DNA of 64,000 nt from Escherichia coli (GCF_044324785.1 NZ_CP172127.1); one strand, 5' to 3'. Numbered from the stretch's first letter, positions 20,380-37,211 are shown. Notes: generated by a model not told the origin, from the letters alone. A program made the numbers and translations.

Positions 20380-21639
20380 TTATGAGCGTTTCATCATCTC
20401 GAAGAAATCGTCATTGGTCTTGGTCATTGCCAGTTTATTAATGAGGAATTCCATTGCATCGATTTCGCCCATCGGGTGAATGATTTTGCGCAGGATCCAC
20501 ATTTTCTGCAGTTCTTCCTGAGTAGTGAGCAGCTCTTCTTTACGGGTACCGGAACGGTTGTAGTCGATTGCCGGGAAGACGCGTTTTTCAGCGATCTTAC
20601 GAGAGAGGTGCAGTTCCATGTTGCCTGTACCTTTAAACTCTTCGTAGATAACTTCGTCCATCTTGGAACCGGTATCGATAAGCGCGGTAGCGATGATGGT
20701 CAGGCTGCCGCCCTCTTCCACGTTACGCGCCGCACCGAAGAAGCGTTTCGGACGATGCAGGGCGTTGGCATCCACACCACCGGTCAGCACTTTACCTGAC
20801 GCCGGAACAACGGTGTTGTAAGCGCGCGCCAGACGAGTGATGGAGTCGAGCAGAATGATAACGTCTTTCTTGTGCTCAACCAGGCGTTTCGCCTTCTCGA
20901 TCACCATTTCCGCAACCTGAACGTGGCGAGATGCGGGTTCGTCAAAGGTAGAAGCAACAACTTCACCTTTTACCAGTCGCTGCATCTCGGTTACTTCTTC
21001 TGGACGTTCGTCGATCAGCAGAACCATCAGCACACAATCCGGGTGGTTGTAAGCAATGCTCTGAGCAATGTTCTGCAGCAGCATGGTTTTACCGGCTTTC
21101 GGCGGTGCCACAATCAGACCACGCTGACCACGACCGATAGGTGATGCCAGATCCAGTACGCGAGCGGTTAAATCTTCAGTAGAACCGTTACCACGTTCCA
21201 TACGCAGACGAGAGTTTGCGTGCAGCGGGGTTAAGTTCTCAAAGAGGATTTTGTTGCGGGCGTTTTCAGGTTTGTCGAAGTTAACTTCGTTAACTTTCAG
21301 CAGCGCAAAATAGCGTTCACCTTCTTTCGGCGGGCGAATCTTACCAGAGATGGTATCACCAGTGCGGAGGTTGAAACGGCGGATTTGGCTAGGGGAAACG
21401 TAGATGTCATCAGGACCGGCGAGGTAGGAGCTGTCTGCGGAACGGAGGAAACCAAATCCATCCTGCAATATCTCCAGTACGCCATCACCAAAGATATCTT
21501 CGCCACTCTTTGCGTGCTGCTTCAGGATGGCAAAAATAATGTCCTGCTTACGCATACGAGCCAGGTTTTCCAGCCCCATATTTTCGCCGAGAGTGATCAG
21601 CTCAGAAACCGGCGTATTCTTTAATTCGGTAAGATTCAT
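20380..21639 (-). CDS. rho: Transcription termination factor Rho, 419 aa
   Basis: Start at [14 protein letters not shown]...; Walker A/B ATPase motifs; the ORF-track start at 21711 adds 24 non-native codons. Confidence 0.95.
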
Positions 21640-21723
21640 AGTGGTGTGAGTTCTTAAACTTGGGGTAAATCTCGAACTTAATGTTGTGAATGGTATGGCA
21701 GGATCATCCATGCCTGTTTACGG

Positions 21724-21825
21724 TCATCGACTCATGTCTTTTCGCTGTCTGGTCACAGGAGAGTACGCAGAACTGAAACGACAAGACGGATTGAGTGACG
21801 AGCCAGAAATCTGTTCACTTCGCAT
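21724..21825 (-). CDS. rhoL: rho operon leader peptide, 33 aa
   Basis: Manually translated minus-strand ORF MRSEQISGSSLNPSCRFSSAYSPVTRQRKDMSR upstream of rho; below the ORF-track size cutoff. Confidence 0.7.
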   Translation of the reverse strand: MRSEQISGSSLNPSCRFSSAYSPVTRQRKDMSR

Positions 21826-21965
21826 TTAAGATAAAACGGGAAGCGTTGGAAATTACAAGATTCAAACTTAATAAGGTATGTTTAATACGAAGTCAACACT
21901 AAGTTAGCATGACTCACGCCGGGCGTCCAGTTTTTAGCGACGGGGCACCCGAACATGAAATTCCC

Positions 21966-22295
21966 TTACGCCAGGTTAGCGTCGAGGAACTCTTTCAACT
22001 GACCTTTAGACAGTGCGCCCACTTTGGTTGCCGCCACTTCACCGTTTTTGAACAGCAGCAGAGTCGGGATACCACGGATACCATATTTCGGCGCAGTGCC
22101 AGGGTTTTGATCGATGTTCAGTTTTGCAACGGTCAGTTTGCCCTGATATTCGTCAGCGATTTCATCCAGAATCGGGGCGATCATTTTGCACGGACCGCAC
22201 CACTCTGCCCAGAAATCGACGAGGATCGCCCCGTCCGCTTTGAGTACATCCGTGTCAAAACTGTCGTCAGTCAGGTGAATAATTTTATCGCTCAT
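21966..22295 (-). CDS. trxA: Thioredoxin 1, 109 aa
   Basis: Start at [13 protein letters not shown]...; WCGPC active site; the ORF track adds 35 upstream codons. Confidence 0.95.
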
Positions 22296-22425
22296 ATATA
22301 ACTCCACAGGAATAAGCCTGGCGTGTTGGTTTCGTTGTTGGTGTAACATTAACCAACTTAAGGTTGACTTTATTTCACCGGATACGCTTTCGTAAAGCAA
22401 TAGTAAGCTGATATTCTACCACACT

Positions 22426-23691
22426 ATGAGCAAAACACATTTAACAGAACAGAAGTTTTCCGACTTCGCCCTGCATCCGAAGGTTGTAGAAGCCCTTGAA
22501 AAAAAAGGGTTTCATAACTGTACGCCCATTCAGGCACTGGCCCTTCCGCTGACGCTGGCGGGTCGTGACGTAGCCGGGCAGGCGCAAACCGGTACCGGGA
22601 AAACGATGGCGTTTCTTACGTCAACGTTTCATTATCTTCTCTCTCATCCCGCGATTGCCGATCGCAAGGTGAATCAACCGCGTGCCTTAATTATGGCACC
22701 GACGCGTGAACTTGCCGTGCAGATCCACGCCGACGCAGAGCCACTTGCGCAAGCTACCGGCCTGAAGCTGGGTCTGGCTTACGGTGGTGATGGCTACGAC
22801 AAACAGCTGAAAGTGCTGGAAAGCGGCGTTGACATTCTGATTGGCACCACGGGGCGTTTAATTGACTACGCCAAGCAGAACCACATTAACCTCGGTGCCA
22901 TTCAGGTAGTGGTACTGGACGAAGCCGATCGCATGTACGATCTGGGCTTTATTAAAGATATCCGCTGGCTGTTCCGCCGTATGCCGCCTGCAAACCAGCG
23001 CCTCAACATGCTGTTCTCCGCCACGCTTTCGTACCGGGTACGTGAACTGGCGTTCGAGCAGATGAACAATGCCGAATATATTGAAGTGGAACCGGAACAG
23101 AAAACGGGCCACCGTATTAAAGAAGAGCTTTTCTACCCTTCTAACGAAGAAAAAATGCGTTTGCTGCAAACGCTGATCGAAGAAGAGTGGCCAGACAGAG
23201 CGATTATTTTCGCCAACACCAAACACCGTTGTGAAGAGATCTGGGGCCACCTGGCGGCAGATGGTCATCGTGTCGGTTTGTTGACAGGCGATGTCGCGCA
23301 GAAAAAACGTCTGCGTATTCTTGATGAATTTACCCGTGGGGATCTGGATATTCTGGTTGCCACCGACGTTGCCGCGCGTGGCCTGCATATCCCGGCTGTG
23401 ACGCACGTCTTTAACTACGATTTACCCGATGACTGTGAAGATTACGTTCACCGTATTGGTCGTACAGGTCGTGCAGGCGCAAGTGGTCATTCCATCAGCC
23501 TGGCATGTGAAGAGTATGCATTGAATTTGCCTGCTATTGAGACCTATATTGGTCACTCAATTCCGGTAAGCAAATACAATCCGGACGCATTGATGACCGA
23601 TCTGCCAAAACCGCTGCGCCTCACGCGCCCGCGCACAGGCAATGGTCCGCGTCGTACTGGCGCTCCGCGTAATCGTCGTCGTTCAGGTTAA
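22426..23691 (+). CDS. rhlB: ATP-dependent RNA helicase RhlB (DEAD-box), 421 aa
   Basis: GTGKT Walker A, DEAD box and Arg-rich C-terminal tail; 421 aa. Confidence 0.94.
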
Positions 23692-23825
23692 ATAAAAATG
23701 TCATACTCAAAATCATTCAAACTGTATCAAGATGGCAAGAGAATGAATCCCGATGCGCATGCTGTAGTAAGTGATTTGGGTGAAAGAACGCAGCCAACGC
23801 AGAGACAGATTGAAGGATGAAGAGT

Positions 23826-25310
23826 ATGGGTTCCACCTCGTCGCTGTATGCAGCCATTGATCTCGGTTCGAATAGTTTTCATATGCTGGTTGTGCGCGAG
23901 GTGGCTGGAAGCATCCAGACGCTGACGCGAATTAAACGCAAAGTGCGTCTGGCTGCTGGCCTGAACAGCGAAAATGCCCTGTCTAATGAAGCAATGGAGC
24001 GCGGTTGGCAATGTCTGCGCCTGTTTGCTGAACGTCTGCAAGATATCCCTCCCTCGCAAATTCGCGTTGTCGCTACGGCGACATTACGACTTGCCGTCAA
24101 TGCGGGTGATTTTATTGCCAAAGCGCAGGAAATCCTCGGTTGTCCGGTACAGGTGATCAGCGGTGAAGAGGAAGCGCGTCTGATTTATCAGGGCGTTGCT
24201 CACACCACTGGCGGTGCCGATCAGCGCCTGGTGGTGGATATAGGTGGTGCCAGTACTGAACTGGTAACCGGCACGGGTGCACAAACCACCTCTTTGTTCA
24301 GCCTGTCGATGGGCTGCGTCACCTGGCTGGAACGCTATTTTGCCGATCGTAATCTGGGGCAGGAAAATTTTGATGCTGCAGAAAAAGCGGCACGCGAAGT
24401 GTTACGTCCGGTTGCCGATGAATTACGGTATCACGGCTGGAAAGTGTGCGTTGGCGCTTCCGGCACTGTGCAGGCGTTACAGGAAATCATGATGGCACAG
24501 GGGATGGATGAACGCATTACCCTGGAAAAGTTGCAGCAACTGAAACAGCGCGCCATTCATTGCGGTCGGCTGGAGGAACTGGAGATTGACGGGCTGACGC
24601 TGGAACGTGCGTTAGTGTTCCCGAGTGGTCTGGCAATCCTGATAGCCATTTTTACCGAACTGAATATTCAGTGTATGACCCTGGCGGGCGGTGCGCTGCG
24701 TGAAGGCCTGGTCTACGGCATGTTGCATCTGGCCGTCGAGCAGGATATTCGCAGCCGTACGCTGCGTAATATTCAACGCCGCTTTATGATCGATATTGAT
24801 CAGGCACAGCGCGTAGCCAAAGTTGCGGCTAACTTCTTCGATCAGGTGGAAAACGAATGGCATCTTGAAGCAATAAGCCGCGATTTGCTCATCAGCGCCT
24901 GCCAGCTTCATGAAATCGGCCTGAGCGTTGACTTCAAACAAGCGCCGCAACATGCTGCTTATCTGGTACGTAATCTGGATCTTCCCGGTTTTACCCCCGC
25001 ACAGAAAAAATTGCTGGCGACGCTACTGCTCAACCAGACGAACCCGGTCGATCTCTCATCGCTGCATCAGCAAAATGCCGTACCGCCGCGCGTCGCAGAA
25101 CAACTCTGTCGTTTACTCCGCCTGGCCATCATTTTTGCCAGCCGTCGTCGTGACGATCTCGTGCCAGAGATGACATTACAGGCTAACCATGAACTGTTGA
25201 CCTTGACGCTTCCGCAAGGTTGGCTAACCCAACATCCGCTGGGTAAAGAGATTATTGATCAGGAAAGCCAGTGGCAGAGCTATGTCCACTGGCCGCTGGA
25301 AGTGCATTAA
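23826..25310 (+). CDS. gppA: Guanosine pentaphosphate phosphohydrolase / exopolyphosphatase-family GppA, 494 aa
   Basis: Start at [18 protein letters not shown]... (Ppx/GppA N-terminal motif); the ORF track begins 3 codons upstream. Confidence 0.9.
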
Positions 25311-25319
25311 TGAGTAAGT

Positions 25320-25351
25320 GCCGGATGCGATGCTGACGCATTTTTTCCGGC
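25320..25351. repeat. REP-like palindromic unit between convergent gppA and rep
   Basis: GCCGGATGCGATGCTGACGCATTTTTTCCGGC resembles the GCCGGATGCG...TCCGGC REP family with a diverged centre. Confidence 0.5.
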
Positions 25352-25356
25352 CTTGA

Positions 25357-27378
25357 TTATTTCCCTCGTTTTGCCGCCATCATCGCTTTCAGATTCGCCA
25401 GATGGCTTTGCCCTTTCTGCATCCGTTCTTCGGCGCTCACCACTTTGCGCTCCTGTTCCCAAATCAGATCATCCTGCGGCAGCTCCAGCAAAAAGCGGCT
25501 CGGCTCCGGGCGCACCAGTTCGCCGTACTGACGGCGTTCTTTACACAGCGTAAAGGTCAATTCCTTCTGGGCGCGGGTAATGCCGACATAGGCCAGCCGC
25601 CGCTCCTCATCGATATTATCTTCATCGATGCTGCTCTGGTGCGGCAAAAAACCTTCTTCCATACCGACCATGTAGACATAAGGAAACTCCAGCCCTTTCG
25701 ACGCGTGCAGAGTCATCAGTTGTACCTGATCCAGCTCTTCCTCACTCTCGCCGCGCTCCATCATGTCGCGCAGAGTAAAGCGCGTCACCACCTGGGTGAG
25801 CGTCATCGGCTCATCCAGTTCGCTGCCTTCCAGCATCTCCGTCATCCAGCTAAACAGTTGGTTGACGTTCTTCATGCGCATTTCGGCAGCTTTCGGGCTG
25901 GGCGATGTTTCGTACAGCCAGGATTCATAATCCATGCCGTGGATCAGATCACGCACCGCGGCAATCGGCTCCCGCTCCGCCAGGCGCTGGATTTCTGCCA
26001 ACCAGTGAGTGAAGCGGGTCAATGCTTCATAACCACGTCCGCTAAGCGTCTGACTCAGGCCCATATCAAAGCTGGCGGTAAACATGCTTTTATTGCGCGT
26101 CATCGCCCACTCACCCAGCTTTTTCAGCGTAGCCGGGCCAATCTCTCGCTTCGGCGTGTTAACGATACGCAGAAATGCGCTGTCATCGTCCGGGTTAGTC
26201 AGCACGCGCAGATAAGCCAGCAAATCCTTGATTTCAGGACGAGAGAAAAACGACGTACCACCAGAAATTTTGTACGGGATGCGGTTTTGCATCAGGAATT
26301 TTTCAAACACCCGCGACTGATGGTTACCGCGATAAAGAATGGCGTAATCTTTGTACTGCGTTTTATTGACGAAGTGATGGGCGATCAGCTCGCCAGTAAC
26401 GCGCTCGGCTTCATGTTCTTCGTTATTCGCGCTTAAAACTTTTAGCTCCGCGCCATAGCCCAGTTCGGAGAACAGACGCTTTTCAAAGACGTGCGGGTTA
26501 TTGGCAATGAGGATGTTCGCCGCTTTCAGAATACGTCCGGAAGAGCGGTAGTTCTGCTCAAGCTTAATCACCTTCAGTGCCGGGAAATCCTGACTCAGCA
26601 GCACCAGGTTTTGCGGACGTGCGCCGCGCCAGGAGTAGATCGACTGGTCATCATCACCCACCACGGTAAAGCGCGCGCGGCTGCCCACCAGCAGTTTCAC
26701 CAGCTCATACTGGCTGGTGTTGGTGTCCTGATATTCGTCCACCAGCAGGTAGCGAATTTTGTTCTGCCAGCGTTCACGAACTTCTTCATTGCGTTGCAAC
26801 AGTAACGTCGGCAATAAAATCAGGTCATCGAAGTCGAGAACGTTACAGGCTTTCAGGTGTGCATCATACAGCCCATAACAATGGGCAAAAATACGATCCC
26901 GCTCGCCCTTTGCCTCTGCCGCCGCCTGCGCCGGAGTTTTGAGATCGTTCTTCCAGTTGGAGATGGTCGAAATCAGCTGTTGCAGGAGAACTTTGTCATC
27001 TTCAATCAGCCCCTCGGTCAGCTCTTTAAGCAAAGCAAGCTGATCGGTATCGTCAAACAACGAGAAGTTTGCTTTCATCCCAAGCGCCGCATACTCTCGT
27101 TTGATGATATCCAGCCCCAGTGTGTGGAAGGTGGAGATCATTAGCCCACGCGCCTCTTTGCGACCCAGCGTCTGCCCGACACGCTCTTTCATCTCGCGCG
27201 CCGCCTTATTGGTAAAGGTCACCGCCGCGATATGTCGCGCCTGATAACCGCAACCGCGGATCAGATGGGCGATTTTATTGGTGATAACACGAGTTTTACC
27301 GGAACCCGCGCCCGCCAGCACCAGGCAGGGGCCGGTAACGAATTCGACAGCTTGTTGTTGGCCGGGGTTTAGACGCAT
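25357..27378 (-). CDS. rep: ATP-dependent DNA helicase Rep, 673 aa
   Basis: Start at [29 protein letters not shown] (UvrD/Rep superfamily 1 motifs); the ORF track adds 5 codons. Confidence 0.93.
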
Positions 27379-27416
27379 AGGAAAATCGCTCAATGAAAGT
27401 CGGGAGGGGAAAATAA

Positions 27417-27746
<330 letters not shown>

Positions 27747-27750
27747 CAGC

Positions 27751-27775
27751 AAGGCCTTCTCCGGGAGAAGGCCTT
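27751..27775. terminator. Bidirectional hairpin between convergent ppiC and ilvC
   Basis: AAGGCCTTCTCC / GGAGAAGGCCTT near-perfect palindrome within the 45-bp spacer. Confidence 0.55.
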
Positions 27776-27791
27776 GAACTCTGAATCGCAC

Positions 27792-29267
27792 TTAACCTGC
27801 AACAGCAATACGTTTCATATCCGTCATATAGCCGCGCAGTTTCTTACCTACCTGCTCAATCGCATGGCTGCGAATCGCTTCGTTCACATCACGCAACTGC
27901 GCGTTATCTACCGCACCTTCCGGAATAGCTTTACCCAGGTCGCCCGGTTGCAGCTCTGCCATAAACGGTTTCAGCAGCGGCACACAAGCGTAAGAGAACA
28001 GATAGTTACCGTATTCAGCGGTATCAGAAATAACCACGTTCATTTCATACAGACGCTTACGGGCGATGGTGTTGGCAATCAGCGGCAGTTCGTGCAGTGA
28101 TTCATAGTAAGCAGACTCTTCGATGATGCCGGAATCAACCATGGTTTCAAACGCCAGCTCAACGCCCGCTTTTACCATCGCGATCATCAGTACGCCTTTA
28201 TCGAAGTACTCCTGCTCGCCGATTTTGCCTTCATACTGCGGCGCGGTTTCGAACGCGGTTTTGCCGGTCTCTTCACGCCAGGTCAGCAGTTTCTTATCGT
28301 CGTTGGCCCAGTCAGCCATCATACCGGAGGAGAATTCGCCGGAGATGATATCGTCCATATGTTTCTGGAACAGCGGTGCCATGATCTCTTTCAATTGCTC
28401 AGAGAGCGCGTAAGCGCGCAGTTTCGCCGGGTTAGAGAGACGGTCCATCATCAGCGTGATGCCGCCCTGTTTCAGTGCTTCGGTGATGGTTTCCCAACCG
28501 AACTGAATTAGTTTTTCTGCGTATGCCGGATCGGTGCCTTCTTCCACCAGCTTGTCGAAGCACAGCAAAGAGCCAGCCTGCAACATGCCGCACAGGATGG
28601 TTTGCTCGCCCATCAGGTCAGATTTCACTTCCGCAACGAAGGACGATTCCAGCACGCCCGCACGGTGACCACCGGTTGCTGCCGCCCATGCTTTAGCGAT
28701 CGCCATGCCTTCGCCTTTCGGATCGTTTTCCGGGTGAACGGCAATCAGCGTCGGTACGCCGAATCCACGTTTGTACTCTTCACGCACTTCGGTGCCCGGG
28801 CATTTCGGCGCAACCATTACTACGGTGATGTCTTTACGGATCTGCTCTCCTACTTCCACGATGTTGAAACCGTGCGAGTAACCCAGCGCCGCGCCATCTT
28901 TCATCAACGGCTGTACGGAACGCACAACGTCGGAATGCTGCTTATCCGGCGTCAGGTTAACCACCAGATCCGCCTGCGGGATCAGTTCTTCGTAAGTACC
29001 AACTTTAAAGCCGTTTTCGGTCGCTTTACGCCAGGACGCGCGCTTCTCGGCAATCGCTTCCTTACGCAGAGCGTAGGAGATATCGAGACCAGAATCACGC
29101 ATGTTCAGGCCCTGGTTCAGACCCTGTGCGCCACAGCCGACGATGACCACTTTTTTACCCTGAAGGTAGCTCGCGCCATCGGCGAATTCATCGCGCCCCA
29201 TAAAGCGACATTTGCCCAGCTGTGCCAGCTGCTGGCGCAGATTCAGTGTATTGAAGTAGTTAGCCAT
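27792..29267 (-). CDS. ilvC: Ketol-acid reductoisomerase, 491 aa
   Basis: Start at [17 protein letters not shown]...; the ORF track adds 74 upstream codons that run into the ilvY promoter region. Confidence 0.95.
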
Positions 29268-29416
29268 GGTGATTCCTCGTGATGTTGTGCTTCTTATTGT
29301 TCGGTTCGCGTTTGCGAGATTGAATTCACTATATGACAGGAAATTTATTGCGGAAATTGATATATTCACAACGTCACATTGCAATTTCTGCAACGTCAAC
29401 ATCGAGGGCTGCGCCT
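29268..29416. promoter_or_regulatory. Divergent ilvY / ilvC promoter-operator region
   Basis: 149-bp spacer between divergent starts; location of the IlvY operators is established knowledge, individual sites not mapped here. Confidence 0.55.
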
Positions 29417-30307
29417 GTGGATTTACGCGATCTGAAAACCTTCCTGCATCTGGCGGAAAGCCGCCATTTTGGCCGTAGCGCGCGGGCAATGCACGTTAGC
29501 CCGTCTACGCTTTCGCGACAAATACAGCGCCTGGAAGAAGATCTCGGTCAGCCGCTGTTTGTGCGTGATAACCGCACGGTAACGCTGACGGAAGCGGGCG
29601 AAGAACTGCGCGTTTTCGCCCAGCAAACACTGTTGCAATATCAGCAATTGCGCCACACCATCGACCAGCAAGGGCCGTCGCTCTCTGGTGAATTACATAT
29701 CTTCTGCTCGGTGACCGCTGCCTACAGCCATCTTCCACCGATTCTCGACCGCTTCCGCGCGGAACATCCGTCAGTGGAGATCAAACTCACTACCGGTGAT
29801 GCGGCCGATGCGATGGAAAAGGTGGTCACTGGCGAAGCGGATCTGGCGATTGCGGGTAAACCGGAAACCTTGCCGGGCGCAGTGGCGTTTTCGATGCTGG
29901 AGAATCTGGCGGTGGTGCTGATTGCTCCCGCGCTGCCCTGCCCGGTGCGTAATCAGGTATCTGTCGAAAAGCCCGACTGGTCTACAGTGCCGTTTATCAT
30001 GGCCGATCAGGGACCGGTACGCCGCCGCATTGAACTGTGGTTTCGGCGTAACAAAATCAGCAACCCAATGATTTACGCCACGGTTGGCGGGCATGAAGCG
30101 ATGGTATCGATGGTGGCGCTCGGCTGTGGCGTGGCGCTGTTGCCGGAAGTGGTGCTGGATAACAGCCCGGAACCGGTGCGTAACCGCGTGATGATTTTAG
30201 AGCGCAGTGATGAAAAAACGCCGTTTGAGCTGGGCGTGTGCGTACAAAAAAAGCGGCTTCATGAGCCGCTGATTGAGGCGTTCTGGAAGATTTTGCCGAA
30301 CCACTAA
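29417..30307 (+). CDS. ilvY: LysR-type regulator IlvY, GTG start
   Basis: Start at GTG ([23 protein letters not shown]...), helix-turn-helix at the N-terminus; the ORF track begins 28 codons upstream. Confidence 0.88.
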
Positions 30308-31848
30308 CCCGCCAAAAAGAACCTGAACGCCGGGTTATTGGTTTCGTCGTGGCAATCGTAGCCCAGTTCATTCAGCCGGGTTTCAAAATCCGGTTCATGA
30401 TCGCCAAGCTCGAACGCCGCCAGTACGCGCCCGTAGTCGGTACCGTGGCTGCGATAATGGAACAGCGAGATGTTCCAGTGCGTACCCAGCGTGTTGAGGA
30501 AGCGCAGCAGCGCGCCCGGTGATTCCGGGAATTCGAAGCTGTATAGGCGTTCCTGCAACGGATGCGATGGACGCCCGCCAACCATATAGCGCACGTGTAG
30601 CTTCGCCATTTCGTCGTCGGAGAGATCAACCACGCTGTAGCCGCCGTCGTTGAGCATCTGCAAAATTTCTTTGCGCTCTTCGAGACCGCGGCTCAGGCGC
30701 ACGCCGACAAAAATGCAGGCGTTTTTGGCATCAGCAAAGCGGTAGTTGAACTCGGTGACCGAGCGCCCACCAAGTAACTGGCAGAATTTGAGGAAGCTGC
30801 CCTTTTCTTCCGGAATGGTCACCGCCAACAACGCTTCACGCTGTTCGCCCAGTTCGCAGCGTTCCGAGACGTAGCGCAGACCGTGAAAGTTCACGTTGGC
30901 ACCGGAAAGAATATGCGCCAGCCGTTCACCGCGAATGTTGTGCTGGGCGATGTATTTTTTCATCCCTGCCAGCGCCAGCGCGCCAGAGGGTTCAGCCACC
31001 GCGCGTACATCTTCGAACAGGTCTTTCATCGCCGCACAGATGGCATCGCTATCGACGGTGATGATGTCGTCAAGATACTCCTGGCACAAACGGAAGGTTT
31101 CATCGCCGATGCGTTTTACCGCGACGCCTTCAGCAAACAGCCCCACGCGGGGCAGATCAACGGGATGACCCGCATCCAGCGCTGCTTTCAGGCAGGCGGA
31201 ATCTTCCGCTTCCACGGCGATCACTTTGATTTGCGGCATCAGTTGTTTGATCAGTACCGCGACGCCCGCCGCCAGACCGCCGCCGCCGACCGGTACAAAT
31301 ACGCGGTCGAGATGGGCGTCCTGCTGGAGCAGTTCCAGCGCCAGCGTGCCTTGCCCGGCGATCACCATCGGATGGTCGAACGGCGGTACCCAGGTGAAAC
31401 CCTGCTGCTGTGACAGTTCGATCGCTTTCGCTTTCGCTTCATCGAAATTTGCGCCGTGAAGCAGCACTTCGCCGCCAAAGCCGCGCACCGCATCAACTTT
31501 GATATCGGCGGTGGCGGTTGGCATGACGATCAGCGCCTTCACGCCTAACCGTGCGGAAGAAAACGCGACGCCCTGCGCGTGGTTACCCGCAGAAGCGGTG
31601 ATCACGCCGTGCGCTTTTTGTTCTTCCGTCAGGCCCGCCATCATGGCGTATGCGCCGCGCAGCTTAAAGCTGTGTACTGGCTGGCGATCTTCGCGCTTCA
31701 CCAGAATCACGTTATCAAGACGCGACGACAGTTTTTCCATTTTCTGTAGCGGCGTGACCTGCGCCGCTTCGTAGACCGGCGCGCGCAGCACCGCTCTTAA
31801 ATATTCGGCACCTTCCGGGGTACCGGACAGGGGTTGCGAGTCAGCCAT
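30304..31848 (-). CDS. ilvA: Threonine deaminase (biosynthetic), 514 aa
   Basis: 514 aa ORF with PLP-dependent fold and C-terminal regulatory domains. Confidence 0.95.
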   Translation of the reverse strand: MADSQPLSGTPEGAEYLRAVLRAPVYEAAQVTPLQKMEKLSSRLDNVILVKREDRQPVHSFKLRGAYAMMAGLTEEQKAHGVITASAGNHAQGVAFSSARLGVKALIVMPTATADIKVDAVRGFGGEVLLHGANFDEAKAKAIELSQQQGFTWVPPFDHPMVIAGQGTLALELLQQDAHLDRVFVPVGGGGLAAGVAVLIKQLMPQIKVIAVEAEDSACLKAALDAGHPVDLPRVGLFAEGVAVKRIGDETFRLCQEYLDDIITVDSDAICAAMKDLFEDVRAVAEPSGALALAGMKKYIAQHNIRGERLAHILSGANVNFHGLRYVSERCELGEQREALLAVTIPEEKGSFLKFCQLLGGRSVTEFNYRFADAKNACIFVGVRLSRGLEERKEILQMLNDGGYSVVDLSDDEMAKLHVRYMVGGRPSHPLQERLYSFEFPESPGALLRFLNTLGTHWNISLFHYRSHGTDYGRVLAAFELGDHEPDFETRLNELGYDCHDETNNPAFRFFLAG

Positions 31849-31850
31849 TA

Positions 31851-33701
31851 TTAACTCCCCAGTTTCGATTTATCGCGCACCGCACCTTTGTCGGCGCTGG
31901 TTGCCAGGCTGGCGTAGGCGCGCAACGCAAAGGAGACCTGACGTTCGCGATTTTTCGGCGTCCAGGCTTTGTCGCCACGAGCTTCCTGCGCTTCACGACG
32001 CGCCGCCAGTTCGGCATCGCTTACCTGTAACTGAATGCCACGGTTGGGAATGTCGATAGCGATAAGATCGCCGTCTTCAATCAGACCAATGCTGCCGCCG
32101 CTTGCCGCTTCCGGCGAGACGTGGCCGATGGAAAGACCAGAGGTGCCGCCGGAGAAGCGTCCGTCGGTGATCAGCGCGCAGGCTTTACCGAGACCCATTG
32201 ATTTCAGGAAGCTGGTTGGGTAGAGCATTTCCTGCATCCCCGGACCGCCTTTCGGGCCTTCGTACCGGATCACCACTACATCGCCAGCGACAACTTTGCC
32301 GCCGAGAATCGCTTCTACCGCGTCATCCTGGCTTTCGTACACTTTCGCCGGGCCGGTGAATTTGAGGATGCTGTCATCGACGCCCGCGGTTTTAACAATG
32401 CAGCCGTTTTCTGCGAAATTACCGTAGAGCACCGCCAAGCCGCCGTCTTTGCTGTAGGCGTATTCCAGCGAGCGGATACAGCCGTTTGCGCGATCGTCAT
32501 CGAGAGAATCCCAACGGCAATCCTGCGAGAATGCCTGTGTAGTACGAATGCCAGCAGGGCCTGCGCGGAACATATTTTTAACCGCGTCATCCTGGGTCAG
32601 CATAACGTCGTATTGTTCCAGCGTTTGCGGCAACGTCAGGCCAAGCACGTTTTTCACATCACGGTTCAGTAACCCCGCGCGATCCAGTTCGCCAAGAATA
32701 CCGATAACACCACCAGCACGATGAACATCTTCCATATGGTATTTCTGGGTGCTCGGCGCAACTTTACACAGCTGTGGAACCTTGCGGGAGAGCTTATCAA
32801 TATCACTCATGGTGAAGTCGATTTCCGCTTCCTGCGCCGCCGCCAGCAGGTGAAGTACCGTGTTGGTAGAGCCGCCCATCGCGATATCCAGCGTCATGGC
32901 ATTTTCAAACGCCGCTTTGCTAGCAATATTGCGCGGCAGTGCACTTTCGTCGTTTTGCTCGTAGTAACGTTTGGTCAATTCAACAATGCGTTTACCGGCA
33001 TTGAGGAACAGCTGCTTGCGATCGGCGTGGGTCGCCAGCAGCGAGCCGTTGCCCGGCTGCGACAGGCCCAGTGCTTCGGTCAGGCAATTCATAGAGTTAG
33101 CGGTAAACATCCCGGAGCAAGATCCGCAGGTTGGACAGGCGGAACGTTCAACCTGATCGCTCTGGGAGTCAGAAACTTTCGGGTCTGCGCCCTGGATCAT
33201 CGCATCAACCAGATCGAGCTTAATGATCTGATCGGACAGTTTGGTTTTCCCGGCCTCCATCGGACCGCCGGAAACAAAGATCACCGGAATATTCAGGCGC
33301 AGGGAAGCCATCAGCATCCCCGGGGTGATTTTGTCGCAGTTAGAGATGCAGACCATAGCGTCGGCGCAGTGGGCGTTGACCATATATTCAACGGAATCAG
33401 CGATCAGTTCGCGAGATGGCAGTGAATAAAGCATGCCCCCGTGGCCCATAGCGATCCCATCATCCACCGCAATGGTGTTGAACTCTTTGGCAACGCCGCC
33501 AGCCGCTTCAATTTGTTCGGCGACCAGTTTACCGAGATCGCGCAGATGGACGTGACCCGGTACAAATTGGGTGAACGAGTTCACAACCGCGATAATCGGC
33601 TTACCGAAATCGGCGTCGGTCATTCCGGTGGCGCGCCACAGCGCACGAGCACCCGCCATATTACGACCATGAGTGGTGGTGGCGGAACGGTACTTAGGCA
33701 T
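31851..33701 (-). CDS. ilvD: Dihydroxy-acid dehydratase, 616 aa
   Basis: 616 aa ORF; ilvD/edd family motifs. Confidence 0.95.
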
Positions 33702-33765
33702 ACTTTATTTACTCCCAGTGTCTGTCTCGTAAATGGGACGGTGCGTGCCGTCCCATTTTTTGTAT

Positions 33766-34695
33766 TTATTGATTAACTTGATCTAACCAGCCCCATTTAT
33801 CTTCGGTTTCGCCAGTGAAGAGGCCGAAGAAGGCTTGCTGAATGCGTTTGGTAACCGGGCCACAACGGCCTTCGCCAACCTGAATACCGTCTACGCTGCG
33901 CACTGGCGTGATTTCTGCCGCCGTACCGGACATAAACACTTCATCCGCCAGATACAGGGATTCGCGCGACAGCACCTGCTCACGCACTTCAATTCCCAGC
34001 TCTTTCGCCAGTTTGATGATGGCGTCACGGGTAATACCCGGCAGCGCGGATGAGGTGAACGGTGGGGTGAACAGCACACCGTCTTTCACTTCAAACAGGT
34101 TTTCGCCTGCGCCTTCAGAGATATAACCGTTCACATCCAGCGCGATACCTTCCTGATAACCGTGGCGGCGCGCTTCGCTACCCACCAGCAGGGAAGAGAG
34201 GTAGTTACCACCGGCTTTTGCCGCCGTCGGGATGGTGTTTGGTGCTGCGCGGTTCCAGGAGGAAACCATCGCATCGATCCCCTGCTCCAGCGCTTCTGCG
34301 CCCAGATACGCTCCCCACGGGAAAGCGGCGATAATTACATCGGTTGAGTATCCCGCTGGCGGGTTAACGCCCATACCAACATCACCGACGAAGATCAGCG
34401 GACGGATATAGGCGCTGGTGAGATTGTTTTTGCGGATCACGTCACGACAAGCTTCCATCAGCTCATCAATGCTCTGCGAAACCGGGAAGCGATAGATTTT
34501 GGCGGAGTCATGCAGACGCTGCATATGCTCACGATGGCGGAATACAACCGGTCCTTTGTGCGAGTCGTAGCAACGGATGCCTTCAAAAACCGAGGTGCCA
34601 TAGTGCAGCGCGTGCGACATCACATGCACCTTCGCGTCTTTCCAGCGAACCATCTCCCCATTGAACCAAATGTAATCAGCTTTCTTCGTGGTCAT
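33766..34695 (-). CDS. ilvE: Branched-chain amino acid aminotransferase, 309 aa
   Basis: Start at MTTKKADYIWFNGEM...; the ORF track adds 22 codons. Confidence 0.95.
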   Translation of the reverse strand: MTTKKADYIWFNGEMVRWKDAKVHVMSHALHYGTSVFEGIRCYDSHKGPVVFRHREHMQRLHDSAKIYRFPVSQSIDELMEACRDVIRKNNLTSAYIRPLIFVGDVGMGVNPPAGYSTDVIIAAFPWGAYLGAEALEQGIDAMVSSWNRAAPNTIPTAAKAGGNYLSSLLVGSEARRHGYQEGIALDVNGYISEGAGENLFEVKDGVLFTPPFTSSALPGITRDAIIKLAKELGIEVREQVLSRESLYLADEVFMSGTAAEITPVRSVDGIQVGEGRCGPVTKRIQQAFFGLFTGETEDKWGWLDQVNQ

Positions 34696-34714
34696 TTTTA
34701 TATTCCTTTTGCGC

Positions 34715-34978
34715 TCAGGCGCGGATTTGTTGTGATGTGGTTGTGCTCTGGCAGATGGCAACGTGTGCGACGTCCACCAGTTTATTTAACTGACTAAACA
34801 GTAAGTCGACCGACCGTGGGCTGGCAACGGTCAATTCGATATTTATATTTTGTGCATCGCTGGCGGCAGCCATATTCATTGAGCAGACGTGGAAACCACG
34901 ATGACGCACCACGCGTAAAACACGTTCTAAGGTTTCTGGATTGAAGCGAGCCGATACATTGACCTGATGTTGCATCAT
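34715..34978 (-). CDS. ilvM: Acetolactate synthase II small subunit, 87 aa
   Basis: 87 aa ORF whose start overlaps the ilvG stop (ATGA). Confidence 0.92.
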
Positions 34979-36621
34979 GATAATTTCTCCAACATTTCTG
35001 AATTACTGGCACCAGGCGGCACCAGCGGCCAGACATTCTCAAGTTCGTCGATTGAGACATGAAGCAGGTATGGCCCATCACTGTTCAGCATGGTGTCGAG
35101 TGCCGCTTCAACCTGGTCTTTACGGGTGATGTGTTGGCCAGGGATGCCGAAGGCGCTGGCTAACATGAGGAAATCGGGGTTATCAGTAAGGGTGGTTTCG
35201 CTGTATCGTTCCTGAAAAAACAGTTGCTGCCATTGTCGAACCATCCCTAACCGTTGGTTATCGAGTAAGACGATTTTCAACGGTAACTGCTTGCGTTTTA
35301 CGGTGCCCAGCTCTTGCACATTCATCATGAAAGAGCCGTCACCGGAGATACAGACGACGGTATCGTTCGGTCGCGCGACTTGTGCGCCAACCGCCGCTGG
35401 TAAACCAAAACCCATGGTGCCTAAGCCGCTAGAGGTGATGAAATTTTCCGGGCGAGTGTGGGCGATGTGCTGCGCAGCCCACATCTGGTGCTGCCCCACA
35501 TCTGTGGTCACGACGCAATCCGCAGGTTTACGATCCGACAGTTGTTTTAACAACAACGGCGCGTAGATAGCGTCACCGGGATGGTCGTAACGCCAGGAAT
35601 GTTCATCACGCAGCTGCGCGCAGTGTTGCTGCCAGTCATTGATATTTAACGGCTGCTGTAATGCTGGTAACAGAGCATTTAAATCGCCTTGTAATGCCAC
35701 ATGTGCCTGACGCAGCTTGTTCATTTCTGCCGGGTCGATATCCATATGGATAACACTGGCGTGTGGTGCGAAGGTGTTCAGTTTGCCGGTCACCCGGTCA
35801 TCAAAACGTGCACCCACGGCGATCAGCAAGTCGCACTCCTGCACCGCGAAGTTCGCCGCTTTGGTGCCATGCATTCCCAGCATGCCCAGATAGTACGGAT
35901 AATCTGCTTCAACTGCGCCCAGCCCTTTCAGCGTGCAGGTGGCAGGCATTTTTGTGGTAGCGAGAAATTCTCGTAAAGCAGGAACTGCCTGCGCCATACC
36001 TACGCCCCCGCCAACGTACAGCATCGGTTTTTGCGCTTTTGCCAGCATCTGGCGCGCTTGCTCAACTTCGGCATGTGGGAAAGTCACTTCGTTTTCAACG
36101 GTGGTGAACCACGGTTCCAGGTCACCGCTGGCTAGCTGGATATCTTTTGGGATATCGACCAGAACCGGACCAGGACGACCTGAGCTGGCAACGTCGAATG
36201 CTTCAGCCATAATGCGCGGCAACTCTTCAAGCGACTGCACCAGAAAGCTGTGCTTGGTACAGGCTAACGACAATCCCAGGACATCCACTTCCTGAAATGC
36301 GTCAGTGCCGATAAACGGTGCGGACACTTGACCGGTGATGGCAACAACAGGGATGGAATCTAACAGTGCGTCCGCAAGCCCGGTTATCAGGTTGGTTGCG
36401 CCCGGACCAGACGTGGCGATACATACGCCAGTTTTGCCGGTAGCACGGGCATAACCGATAACCGCCATTGCCGCACCCTGCTCATGTCGGCACAGCAAGT
36501 GCTCCACGCCGCCGTCATACAATGCATCGTAAACCGGCATAATTGCGCCACCCGGATAACCGAAAACGGTATTCACACCCTGTGCCCGCAACGCATGTAC
36601 CACCCACTGTGCGCCATTCAT
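34975..36621 (-). CDS. ilvG: Acetolactate synthase II large subunit, intact 548 aa reading frame
   Basis: Single uninterrupted 548 aa ORF with ThDP-binding motifs; no internal frameshift or stop. Confidence 0.93.
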
Positions 36622-36623
36622 AG

Positions 36624-36674
36624 TTAGTTCCCCGTCCTGAATCTTGAGAAACAGAATTTTGTGCTGTTATTCAT
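36624..36674 (-). CDS. ilvX: Small peptide IlvX, 16 aa
   Basis: Manually translated [16 protein letters not shown] between the attenuator and ilvG, matching the recalled ilvX peptide. Confidence 0.55.
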
Positions 36675-36703
36675 TGTCTGCTCCTCGGTTATGTTTTTAA
36701 GGT

Positions 36704-36736
36704 CAAAAAAAACCCCCGGACCTTTCGGTGCGGGGG
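36704..36736 (-). terminator. ilvLXGMEDA attenuator terminator
   Basis: CCCCCG / CGGGGG hairpin followed on the minus strand by U8, directly downstream of ilvL. Confidence 0.8.
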
Positions 36737-36760
36737 TCTTAGTTCGTTAAGGCTTGATCT

Positions 36761-36859
36761 CTAAGCCTTTCCTCGTCCAAGTGCAGCCCCGCACGGTGGG
36801 ATAATAATCACCACCACGCTAATCACGACCAGGCTAATCACTCGTAGAAGGGCTGTCAT
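36761..36859 (-). CDS. ilvL: ilv operon leader peptide, 32 aa, rich in Val, Ile and Leu
   Basis: Manually translated MTALLRVISLVVISVVVIIIPPCGAALGRGKA with runs of regulatory Ile/Val/Leu codons. Confidence 0.88.
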   Translation of the reverse strand: MTALLRVISLVVISVVVIIIPPCGAALGRGKA

Positions 36860-37211
36860 TTTGTCTTTTCTTGCATCTTGTTCGAAGGAATGCCTAAAGA
36901 GTTACCATAGATTTTGCGAATAGCACAAGATATTTTTTGGCCGATTTTTATGATGCGTTTAATAATTTCAATAGAAATTGTTGTTTTTTAAAAAGAAAAT
37001 AGTGAGTGAAAAAAATTCAATTTCAGTATAAATGTTGTTCCCTTCCTCGTAGTTCATCCTTTGTCCGCTGCATTTTTGCGAGCATCATTCCACCGCCAGA
37101 ACAACTCAACTTCACTTGCACAAATAAACAGGAATCAGCCACTAAAATTCACGAATTAGCGGGCTACAGCAGCGATATCTTATGCACATAATGGTGACTC
37201 AAGGAGGGCTT

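Follow-up and report, generated by a model that had tools for sequence, protein, structure and literature searches.

The window, a stretch of 64,000 nucleotides, is a segment of the Escherichia coli chromosome that extends from rrnC to glmZ. It is about 97% identical to K-12 and has the inverted orientation relative to it. Three open reading frames shorter than 60 codons are considered here, all of them on the minus strand (Table 1). One of them, rhoL, is located in the leader of rho, between trxA and rho, and position 21724 is the final base of its stop codon. The other two, ilvL and ilvX, precede ilvG. The ilvL frame, whose ATG begins with the A at position 36859, is on the same strand as ilvG and upstream of it, and an intrinsic terminator lies between the two (ilvG starts at 36621). 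The ilvG gene is intact in this strain, whereas it is a pseudogene in K-12.

Table 1. Genes, leaders and RNA elements at the rho and ilv loci (positions in the window).
Feature	Positions	Strand	Basis or remark
rho coding sequence, 419 aa (MNLTELK...), start at 21639	20380..21639	minus	K-12 synteny; leader-controlled gene
Putative rho promoter (-35-like TTGACT, 21891..21896) and leader RNA of ~255 nt	21640..21896	minus	promoter inferred from sequence and conservation
rhoL ORF, 33 aa and stop	21724..21825	minus	MRSEQISGSSLNPSCRFSSAYSPVTRQRKDMSR; in rho leader, 84 nt upstream of rho ATG
ilvG, intact, 548 aa	34975..36621	minus	nearest structural gene after ilvL and ilvX
ilvX ORF, 16 aa and stop	36624..36674	minus	stop ends 2 nt before ilvG ATG
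3' arm of predicted sequestering hairpin, UCUGUUUCUC	36646..36655	minus	ilvX codons 7-10; nearly invariant, synonymous positions included
ilvX Shine-Dalgarno site and spacer, GAGGAGCAGA	36677..36686	minus	5' arm of predicted sequestering hairpin
ilv attenuator: intrinsic terminator hairpin and 8-U run	36705..36740	minus	folding
Antiterminator 3' arm, CCCCGCAC	36728..36735	minus	in silico folding; shared with terminator 5' arm
ilvL leader peptide ORF, 32 aa	36761..36859	minus	MTALLRVISLVVISVVVIIIPPCGAALGRGKA
Antiterminator 5' arm, GUGCGGGG	36787..36794	minus	in silico folding; ilvL codons 22-25
Match to Rfam RF02744 (Rev39_5p_UTR)	36641..36930	minus	157.1 bits, gathering score 88; full model

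An earlier note, made from the raw sequence, had described a 33-residue rho leader frame, a 32-residue ilv leader rich in Val, Ile and Leu, and a 16-residue ilvX peptide. All three are present, and comparison with the annotation of K-12 (NC_000913.3) gives zero mismatches: the peptides are identical to the MG1655 products b3782 (rhoL), b3766 (ilvL) and b4669 (ilvX). The note had their lengths and coordinates right, as well as their description as known elements below 60 residues. The DNA of ilvL and ilvX is also identical to that of K-12, and rhoL differs by a single synonymous base. In the corresponding K-12 interval these genes are the only annotated coding sequences shorter than 60 residues. 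The family profiles agree with the assignments: RhoL scores 95.2 bits against NF007433 (curated cut-off 85), and IlvL scores 81.9 bits against NF007744 (curated cut-off 59) and 61.5 bits against PF08046 (cut-off 25). IlvX, with 16 residues, is below the size that profile tools handle, and its identity to b4669 was checked directly. DNA matching the three genes is present in 5,425 of 5,426 complete E. coli genomes. Among the matches listed, every one is annotated with these genes, ilvX as 'peptide IlvX' and rhoL, in the E. coli RefSeq genomes, under its own name. The three frames are already annotated E. coli genes, and their finding is correct, ordinary and already known.

The length of a small frame carries no meaning by itself here. 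The 15,136-nt span that contains the three genes has 98 frames of 16-59 residues that start with ATG, and 199 if GTG and TTG starts are included. The three stand above this background because they are exactly identical to curated genes, because the family scores of RhoL and IlvL exceed the cut-offs and because they are nearly universally present.

The ilvL gene is a classical ribosome-mediated attenuation leader of ilvGMEDA. Its 32 codons include six for Val, five for Ile and four for Leu (15/32), and the peptide is nearly invariant at 62 Enterobacteriaceae loci from more than 20 genera. The attenuator hairpin that had been claimed for this leader is real and consists of a 32-nt stem-loop followed by the run of eight U residues. 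The terminator stem is present in every full-length fold and has an energy of -21.6 kcal/mol on its own; the fold of the leader has a z-score of -4.1. A consensus promoter and terminator scanner missed the attenuator because the stem contains a 1x1 internal loop. The leader, the attenuator and the start of ilvX are matched as one cis-regulatory RNA by RF02744.

The GUGCGGGG:CCCCGCAC duplex has a predicted energy of -15.9 kcal/mol. The antiterminator forms in silico with the ribosome at codons 11-18, the Val/Ile run, is weakened with the ribosome at codon 20 and is impossible with the ribosome at the stop codon. To see it, the terminator's 3' arm has to be left out of the fold, which mimics the nascent transcript. 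In equilibrium folding of the full leader with the ribosome masked, the terminator is always retained and the antiterminator is absent. A ribosome stalled on the Val, Ile or Leu codons would leave GUGCGGGG free to pair with CCCCGCAC. This pairing would block the terminator, and transcription would continue into ilvX and ilvG. With a ribosome at the ilvL stop codon, GUGCGGGG would be covered, the terminator would form and transcription would end. The response of read-through to the charging of the branched-chain tRNAs is established for K-12, and the DNA is identical here. In addition, ilvL is repressed by GcvB (PMC9299463).

Across the comparative set, which consists of Enterobacteriaceae whose IlvY is at least 91% identical, about 50 out of 52 distinct sequences have the ilvX frame at the same place. 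The start at -53 relative to ilvG is ATG in 42/52 and GTG in 9/52 (51/52 together). A stop codon, TAA or TGA, lies at -5..-3 in 49 of these sequences, and in the remaining three the frame extends to a TGA that overlaps the ilvG ATG. Internal stops are found in none of the 52 sequences, whereas the two alternative frames are interrupted by stops in 51 and 42 of them. The Shine-Dalgarno core is retained in 45 of 47 distinct segments upstream of the start, the site being GAGGAG. A small frame with its own Shine-Dalgarno site, its own start and a stop close to or overlapping the ilvG start, all of them conserved, has the architecture of a coupled upstream ORF. A translational fusion made to ilvX shows expression (PMC9299463). 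The ilvG gene is preceded by a conserved GGGGA of its own, and given this site coupling to ilvX may be unneeded.

The Shine-Dalgarno site of ilvX is predicted to pair with the ilvX frame itself. The 47-nt hairpin has an energy of -11.4 kcal/mol and a z-score of -3.5, and none of 200 shuffled sequences folds as well. In the alignment, 95.9% of the cells are paired, compared with 56-68% when the partner is slid. The same helix is present in the RF02744 consensus. The hairpin is supported mainly by invariance, as covariation is almost nil (three compensatory cells). The 101-nt single-sequence fold of the region is unexceptional (z -0.77), and RNAalifold gives a weak consensus of -2.9 kcal/mol that overlaps the Shine-Dalgarno hairpin in part. 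A second candidate hairpin, between ilvX codons 12-13 and the ilvG start (AUUCA:UGAAU), was rejected: it has 5 bp, is paired in 86% of the cells without covariation and folds no better than shuffled controls. The invariance of synonymous sites in ilvX might stem from some other function of the RNA or DNA. An IHF-type site (WATCAANNNNTTR) was sought by eye in the conserved ilvX core and none was seen; the closest sequence is found past the stop codon of ilvL, outside ilvX.

In the rho leader, it is the RNA that is conserved. Conservation across genera amounts to 91-95% in the leader and is highest downstream of rhoL: the non-coding stretch 3' of the frame is 94.9% conserved, compared with 90.9% for the rhoL frame. 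The putative -35 element TTGACT lies at -257; a consensus promoter scanner found no promoter in the leader. The C/G ratio is 1.2-1.7 across rhoL and rises to 2.0-2.9 at -79..+24, near the rho ATG, values that are compatible with a Rho-dependent attenuator and not diagnostic of one. Rho-dependent termination early in rho has been documented, with RNA polymerase occupancy increased 12-fold in a rho mutant (PMC12121999), and autoregulation of the rho leader by Rho is attributed to Matsumoto et al. 1986 where PMC12121999 cites that work. The leader RNA would be the conserved functional entity, onto which Rho loads and on which it terminates transcription prematurely.

A Shine-Dalgarno site was sought upstream of the rhoL start (CGCTTCCCGTTTTATCTTAAATG) and none was found. 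The ATG at -186 occurs in three of 37 distinct leaders, all from Escherichia, and is absent in the other 34; seven leaders have no start codon in the rhoL frame. Eight columns of the ORF alignment contain indels of a length not divisible by three, which break the frame. Between E. coli and E. albertii there are two synonymous changes, two missense changes and one nonsense change, and an additional single base change falls inside the E. coli stop triplet. A leader peptide gene is recognized by a ribosome-binding site and a frame conserved among relatives with the same leader, and rhoL has neither. Judged from these alignments, the rhoL frame is not maintained beyond Escherichia, and what is conserved is the RNA of the leader.

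Two readings of ilvX have to be weighed. One holds that IlvX is a functional peptide of 16 residues, which would for instance modulate acetolactate synthase II or some other partner, and that the frame is conserved for its product. The retention of the frame in about 50 of the 52 sequences is in accord with this, as is the fairly well kept motif KFCFSRF (S-[TI]-K-F-C-F-S-R-F across the sequences). Synonymous alternations at codons 10-11 (AGA/CGA and TCA/TCC/TCT) hint at some constraint on the peptide, and PMC9299463 cites ilvX as a detected small-peptide gene, with reference to Hemm 2008 and 2010. The pattern of variation, however, is not that of a selected peptide. An excess of third-position (synonymous) variation, which purifying selection would leave, was sought in the ilvX alignment and is absent: nucleotide diversity at codon positions 1, 2 and 3 is 0.17, 0.27 and 0.20, compared with 0.003, 0.009 and 0.25 in codons 1-10 of ilvG. 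Residues 2-3 and 12-16 vary freely, and the conserved core, AGCAYAAAATTCTGTTTC, is invariant at its synonymous sites too and is complementary to the gene's own Shine-Dalgarno site. Furthermore, in Intestinirhabdus alba the Shine-Dalgarno site of ilvX is lost along with its start codon, and the core is still retained. A role for the peptide itself is therefore rather unlikely, and its sequence would be under weak constraint. Because there is no third-position excess and the predicted partner of the Shine-Dalgarno site is an invariant part of the frame, ilvX looks like a regulatory upstream ORF of ilvG rather than a selected peptide. Its most likely role would be to set the delivery of ribosomes to ilvG, either by termination and reinitiation or by opening of local structure, and initiation at ilvX itself might be damped by the hairpin between its Shine-Dalgarno site and codons 7-10. 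Among the papers searched, none ties ilvX to upstream-ORF function or to translational coupling.

For rhoL, the alternative that follows from its annotated name, 'rho operon leader peptide', is a true leader peptide with a regulatory role, whose translation would shield or uncover the leader RNA for Rho and in this way set rho expression. The frame lies upstream of the region of Rho termination (PMC12121999), RhoL is listed among the EcoCyc leader peptides (PMC7815308), and the gene is annotated in all the matches listed, with its DNA in all complete E. coli genomes except one. Ribosome profiling of initiation sites also places it in a group of small ORFs with at least 3-fold induction under low Mg2+ (PMC11429745), because of which rhoL is probably translated in E. 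coli, where it could modulate the loading of Rho. Against this reading stand the missing Shine-Dalgarno site, the lack of the start codon and the broken frame in other genera, the neutral-like substitutions between E. coli and E. albertii, a nonsense change among them, and the better conservation of the leader outside the frame; the papers searched contained no experiment on rhoL translation. A genuine leader peptide is thus unlikely. With a frame confined to Escherichia, translation of rhoL would have at most a lineage-specific modulating effect. Outside Escherichia, rhoL behaves as a chance frame would, and frames of this size are abundant in the span. It is nevertheless very improbable that all three genes are chance intergenic frames with no information beyond the surrounding RNA elements. 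The exact match of all three to curated genes argues against it, as do the specific codon content of ilvL with its coupling to alternative RNA structures, and the start, Shine-Dalgarno site and stop position of ilvX, kept across genera in which the other two frames are closed. For ilvL and ilvX the chance reading is already refuted by conservation.

The three annotated small ORFs of E. coli thus have, with high confidence, three different standings: ilvL is an attenuation leader, ilvX an upstream ORF and rhoL a frame in a functional leader RNA. The comparison across Enterobacteriaceae points to translation as the mode of action of ilvL and probably of ilvX, but not of rhoL. A more specific proposal is advanced tentatively, its chance being put at somewhat less than even. 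It states that ilvX is no ordinary peptide gene and instead a conserved device for translational control of ilvG across Enterobacteriaceae, with its Shine-Dalgarno site locked in a 10-bp hairpin by an invariant anti-Shine-Dalgarno sequence of the frame, and with termination 2 nt before the ilvG AUG that hands on ribosomes, and at the same time that rhoL is a lineage-specific frame within a conserved, Rho-sensing leader RNA and not a leader peptide gene. The claim of the earlier note that the regulatory content resides in frames below the length cut-off holds fully for ilvL, is plausible for ilvX as an upstream ORF of ilvG and is doubtful for rhoL, whose frame is unconserved outside Escherichia in a leader RNA that is conserved.

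The finding itself adds nothing new, as all three are curated K-12 genes and ilvL is the attenuator of the textbooks. Its value is that of a positive control, in which a careful reading of raw sequence recovers genuine genes that an ORF-length cut-off would miss. Annotators and those who study small proteins may find a modest use for the comparative results. The label 'leader peptide' of rhoL rests on a frame that is unconserved beyond Escherichia, and the upstream-ORF signature of ilvX bears on the translation of IlvG (acetolactate synthase II) in strains with an intact ilvG.

Compared with its K-12 counterpart (b3766; PF08046, NF007744), IlvL has nothing different: the 32-residue sequence, the DNA and the place upstream of ilvG are the same. 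It shares with the classical leaders trpL, hisL, leuL, ivbL, thrL and pheL a run of control codons, here for Val, Ile and Leu, and an intrinsic terminator that overlaps an antiterminator. RhoL also has the same 33-residue sequence (b3782; NF007433), one synonymous base apart, at the same trxA-rho location, but in contrast to the true attenuation leaders it lacks a Shine-Dalgarno site, a run of control codons and a frame conserved outside Escherichia. The RF02744 family is described as the 5' UTR of soft-rot Enterobacteriaceae, and its consensus holds the ilvL hairpins, the terminator and the helix between the ilvX Shine-Dalgarno and anti-Shine-Dalgarno sequences. The entry treats the element as RNA only, and the two ORFs inside go unnamed. 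IlvX agrees with b4669 in its 16 residues, its DNA and its place between the attenuator and ilvG; the gene downstream of it, ilvG, is intact here, unlike in K-12. The annotation of b4669 is 'uncharacterized protein', and the interpretation as an upstream ORF with a Shine-Dalgarno hairpin goes further. Bacterial upstream ORFs whose regulatory effect comes from being translated and not from the product include toiL of topAI (PMC12121999) and mdtU (PMC7815308). Unlike these, ilvX has no demonstrated sensing function, stalling signal or link to Rho. The likeness is one of sequence architecture: as in ORFs of the toiL/mdtU type, a short frame lies directly upstream of its gene, with a strong Shine-Dalgarno site of its own and a weakly constrained peptide.

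The three small reading frames that the earlier note had recovered by translation, rhoL, ilvL and ilvX, lie at the right coordinates with the right lengths, and the span that it quoted extends from the last base of the rhoL stop codon to the first base of the ilvL ATG. Alignment to the annotated peptides, the check that it had asked for, gives no mismatch: RhoL, IlvL and IlvX are all identical to the MG1655 annotation. At the DNA level ilvL and ilvX are also identical, and rhoL carries one synonymous difference. RhoL and IlvL exceed the curated cut-offs (NF007433, NF007744, PF08046). Small ORFs are commonplace in this span (98 ATG-ORFs of 16-59 aa), and the list of three is complete because the K-12 interval holds no other annotated CDS shorter than 60 aa. 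The finding is correct and, as the note itself had said, already known, the three elements being curated in K-12 and annotated by RefSeq under the matches in E. coli genomes. Every sequence and position test places them in their annotated families; the one test that fails asks whether rhoL is kept as a reading frame, and this touches its functional label, not its identity.

Coordinates of the small reading frames and of the RNA structures in the ilv leader region
Feature	Coordinates	Strand	Length or composition	Basis
rhoL	21724..21825	-	33 aa	
ilvL	36761..36859	-	32 aa	
ilvX	36624..36674	-	16 aa	
ilv terminator at the leader's end	36705..36740	-	32-nt hairpin and eight U	folding
Predicted hairpin, ilvX Shine-Dalgarno site with ilvX codons 7-10	36646..36686	-	10 bp	folding and conservation

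According to Rfam and tRNA scans and the ORF list, the gene order is glmZ, proM-leuT-hisR-argX, wec genes, rho, trxA, rhlB, gppA, rep, ppiC and, beyond it, ilvC, ilvY, ilvADEMG, yifB and an rrn operon. The corresponding region of E. coli K-12 lies at ~3.94 to 3.99 Mb in the opposite orientation; identity to MG1655 is 94.7-97.4% over an aligned 20.5-kb stretch and ~97% overall. The ilv and rho leader segments are matched in 5,425 of 5,426 complete E. coli genomes. The ilvG gene (34975..36621, -) is intact and encodes 548 aa, whereas the MG1655 copy is a frameshifted pseudogene; this marks the strain as other than K-12, and it can be expected to make acetolactate synthase II. The rep-ppiC gap (27379..27464) measures 86 bp as against 863 bp in K-12, and the yifN pseudogene region of K-12 (about 780-830 bp) is missing.

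Among 37 distinct trxA-rho intergenic sequences the rho leader is well conserved, but the rhoL reading frame is not. The rhoL ATG, at -186 from the rho start, is confined to Escherichia (3/37 leaders) and lacks a Shine-Dalgarno site in front of it; seven of the 37 leaders have no start codon in this frame. Indels of non-multiple-of-three length occur at eight alignment columns within the ORF, so that its second half is read in a different frame in Enterobacter, Lelliottia, Huaxiibacter and Silvania. Between E. coli and E. albertii, rhoL differs at two synonymous and two missense sites and by one nonsense change; one more base differs in the triplet that forms the stop in E. coli. Mean column identity is 90.9% in the ORF versus 94.9% past its stop, in the stretch annotated as non-coding. 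These 84 nt up to the rho ATG (21640..21723, -) are the best-conserved part of the leader across genera, which suggests an RNA element, for instance a binding site for Rho or an sRNA, or a structure. The leader moderately favors C over G. Because the leader is conserved and the frame is not, and because Rho is documented to end transcription early within its own gene (PMC12121999), the conserved function is best placed in the RNA. Initiation profiling lists rhoL among the small ORFs induced in low Mg2+ (PMC11429745), so its translation in E. coli, with a local effect on Rho loading, is possible; a function for rhoL is doubtful.

Directly past the trxA stop, CTGGACGCCCGGC (21918..21930, -) is invariant in 37/37 leaders, and the sequence 5' of it varies yet stays complementary, as with GCGTCCAGAG...CTCTGGACGC in Enterobacter. 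The element is probably the trxA terminator stem-loop, even though it lacks a U run after it. At 22266..22365 (-) the Rfam model TrxA_thermometer (RF02773) scores 78.7 bits against a gathering score of 58; the match overlaps both the 5' UTR of trxA and its start codon. One comparison locus labeled Citrobacter freundii M-21 (L056, NZ_JAALBX010000017.1) groups in ilvL, ilvX and the rho leader with the Atlantibacter loci L043 and L076, apart from other Citrobacter; the record may be taxonomically mislabeled.

A genome-collection scan with IlvY as query and 10-kb flanks gave 80 Enterobacteriaceae loci covering both leaders. Among 52 distinct sequences, ilvX starts at -53 from ilvG with ATG in 42 and GTG in nine (Salmonella and the Citrobacter freundii group), and none has an internal stop. 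It ends with TAA or TGA at -5..-3 except in three, where the frame continues to a TGA overlapping the ilvG ATG. Stop codons interrupt the two alternative frames in 51 and 42 of the 52, and a GAGGAG-type Shine-Dalgarno site precedes ilvX in 45 of the 47 upstream segments that are distinct. In Raoultella and Enterobacter sp. JUb54 (L077, L082, L083), an in-frame ATG 21 nt upstream, at about -74, extends the frame to 23 codons, M[MRI]SEEQ[TR]MTNSIKFCFSRSMTG[NK], with the usual ATG and Shine-Dalgarno site retained inside.

Diversity per codon position is 0.17 / 0.27 / 0.20 in ilvX versus 0.003 / 0.009 / 0.25 in the first ten ilvG codons; ilvX variation looks unlike protein-coding variation. The core AGCAYAAAATTCTGTTTC is invariant, synonymous sites included, and its 3' part, UCUGUUUCUC, is the complement of GAGGAGCAGA, which comprises the Shine-Dalgarno site and its spacer. 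The helix of the predicted hairpin (-11.4 kcal/mol, z -3.5) also appears in Rfam's RF02744 consensus; 95.9% of its cells are paired versus 56-68% in slid controls, with only three compensatory cells, and its arm within the ORF has invariant synonymous positions across Enterobacteriaceae. Such a hairpin would explain the invariant core. The core persists in Intestinirhabdus alba (L053) despite the loss of both the ilvX start codon and its Shine-Dalgarno site.

We infer that ilvX acts as an upstream ORF: its translation, damped by the ORF's own hairpin and terminating 2 nt before the ilvG AUG, would govern the supply of ribosomes to ilvG. The peptide sequence would then be largely incidental. 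Against this stand some synonymous alternations (AGA/CGA and TCN), the fairly conserved KFCFSRF motif and the conserved GGGGA of ilvG's own upstream. An ilvX fusion is expressed and is not repressed by GcvB (PMC9299463), and a passage of the same paper cites IlvX as a detected small peptide; our literature search found no paper linking ilvX to an upstream-ORF function. The combined reading, with ilvX as an upstream ORF and rhoL demoted, is put forward tentatively, at somewhat short of an even chance, and if true would be of modest interest.

The attenuator hairpin that the earlier note had assigned to ilvL is present. Val, Ile or Leu make up 15 of the 32 ilvL codons, and the fold of the leader is much more stable than those of shuffled sequences (z -4.1). 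In silico, GUGCGGGG (36787..36794) pairs with CCCCGCAC (36728..36735), a portion of the terminator 5' arm, once the 3' arm is left out of the transcript; this pairing forms with the ribosome at codons 11-18, is weaker at codon 20 and is impossible at the stop codon. The IlvL peptide is nearly invariant in 62 loci from >20 genera, and ilvL is additionally repressed by GcvB (PMC9299463). As modeled, the leader structure follows the classical attenuation logic, and attenuation was proven experimentally on the K-12 DNA, identical here, by Lawther and Hatfield (1980), as cited in passages of PMC7815308 and PMC9299463.
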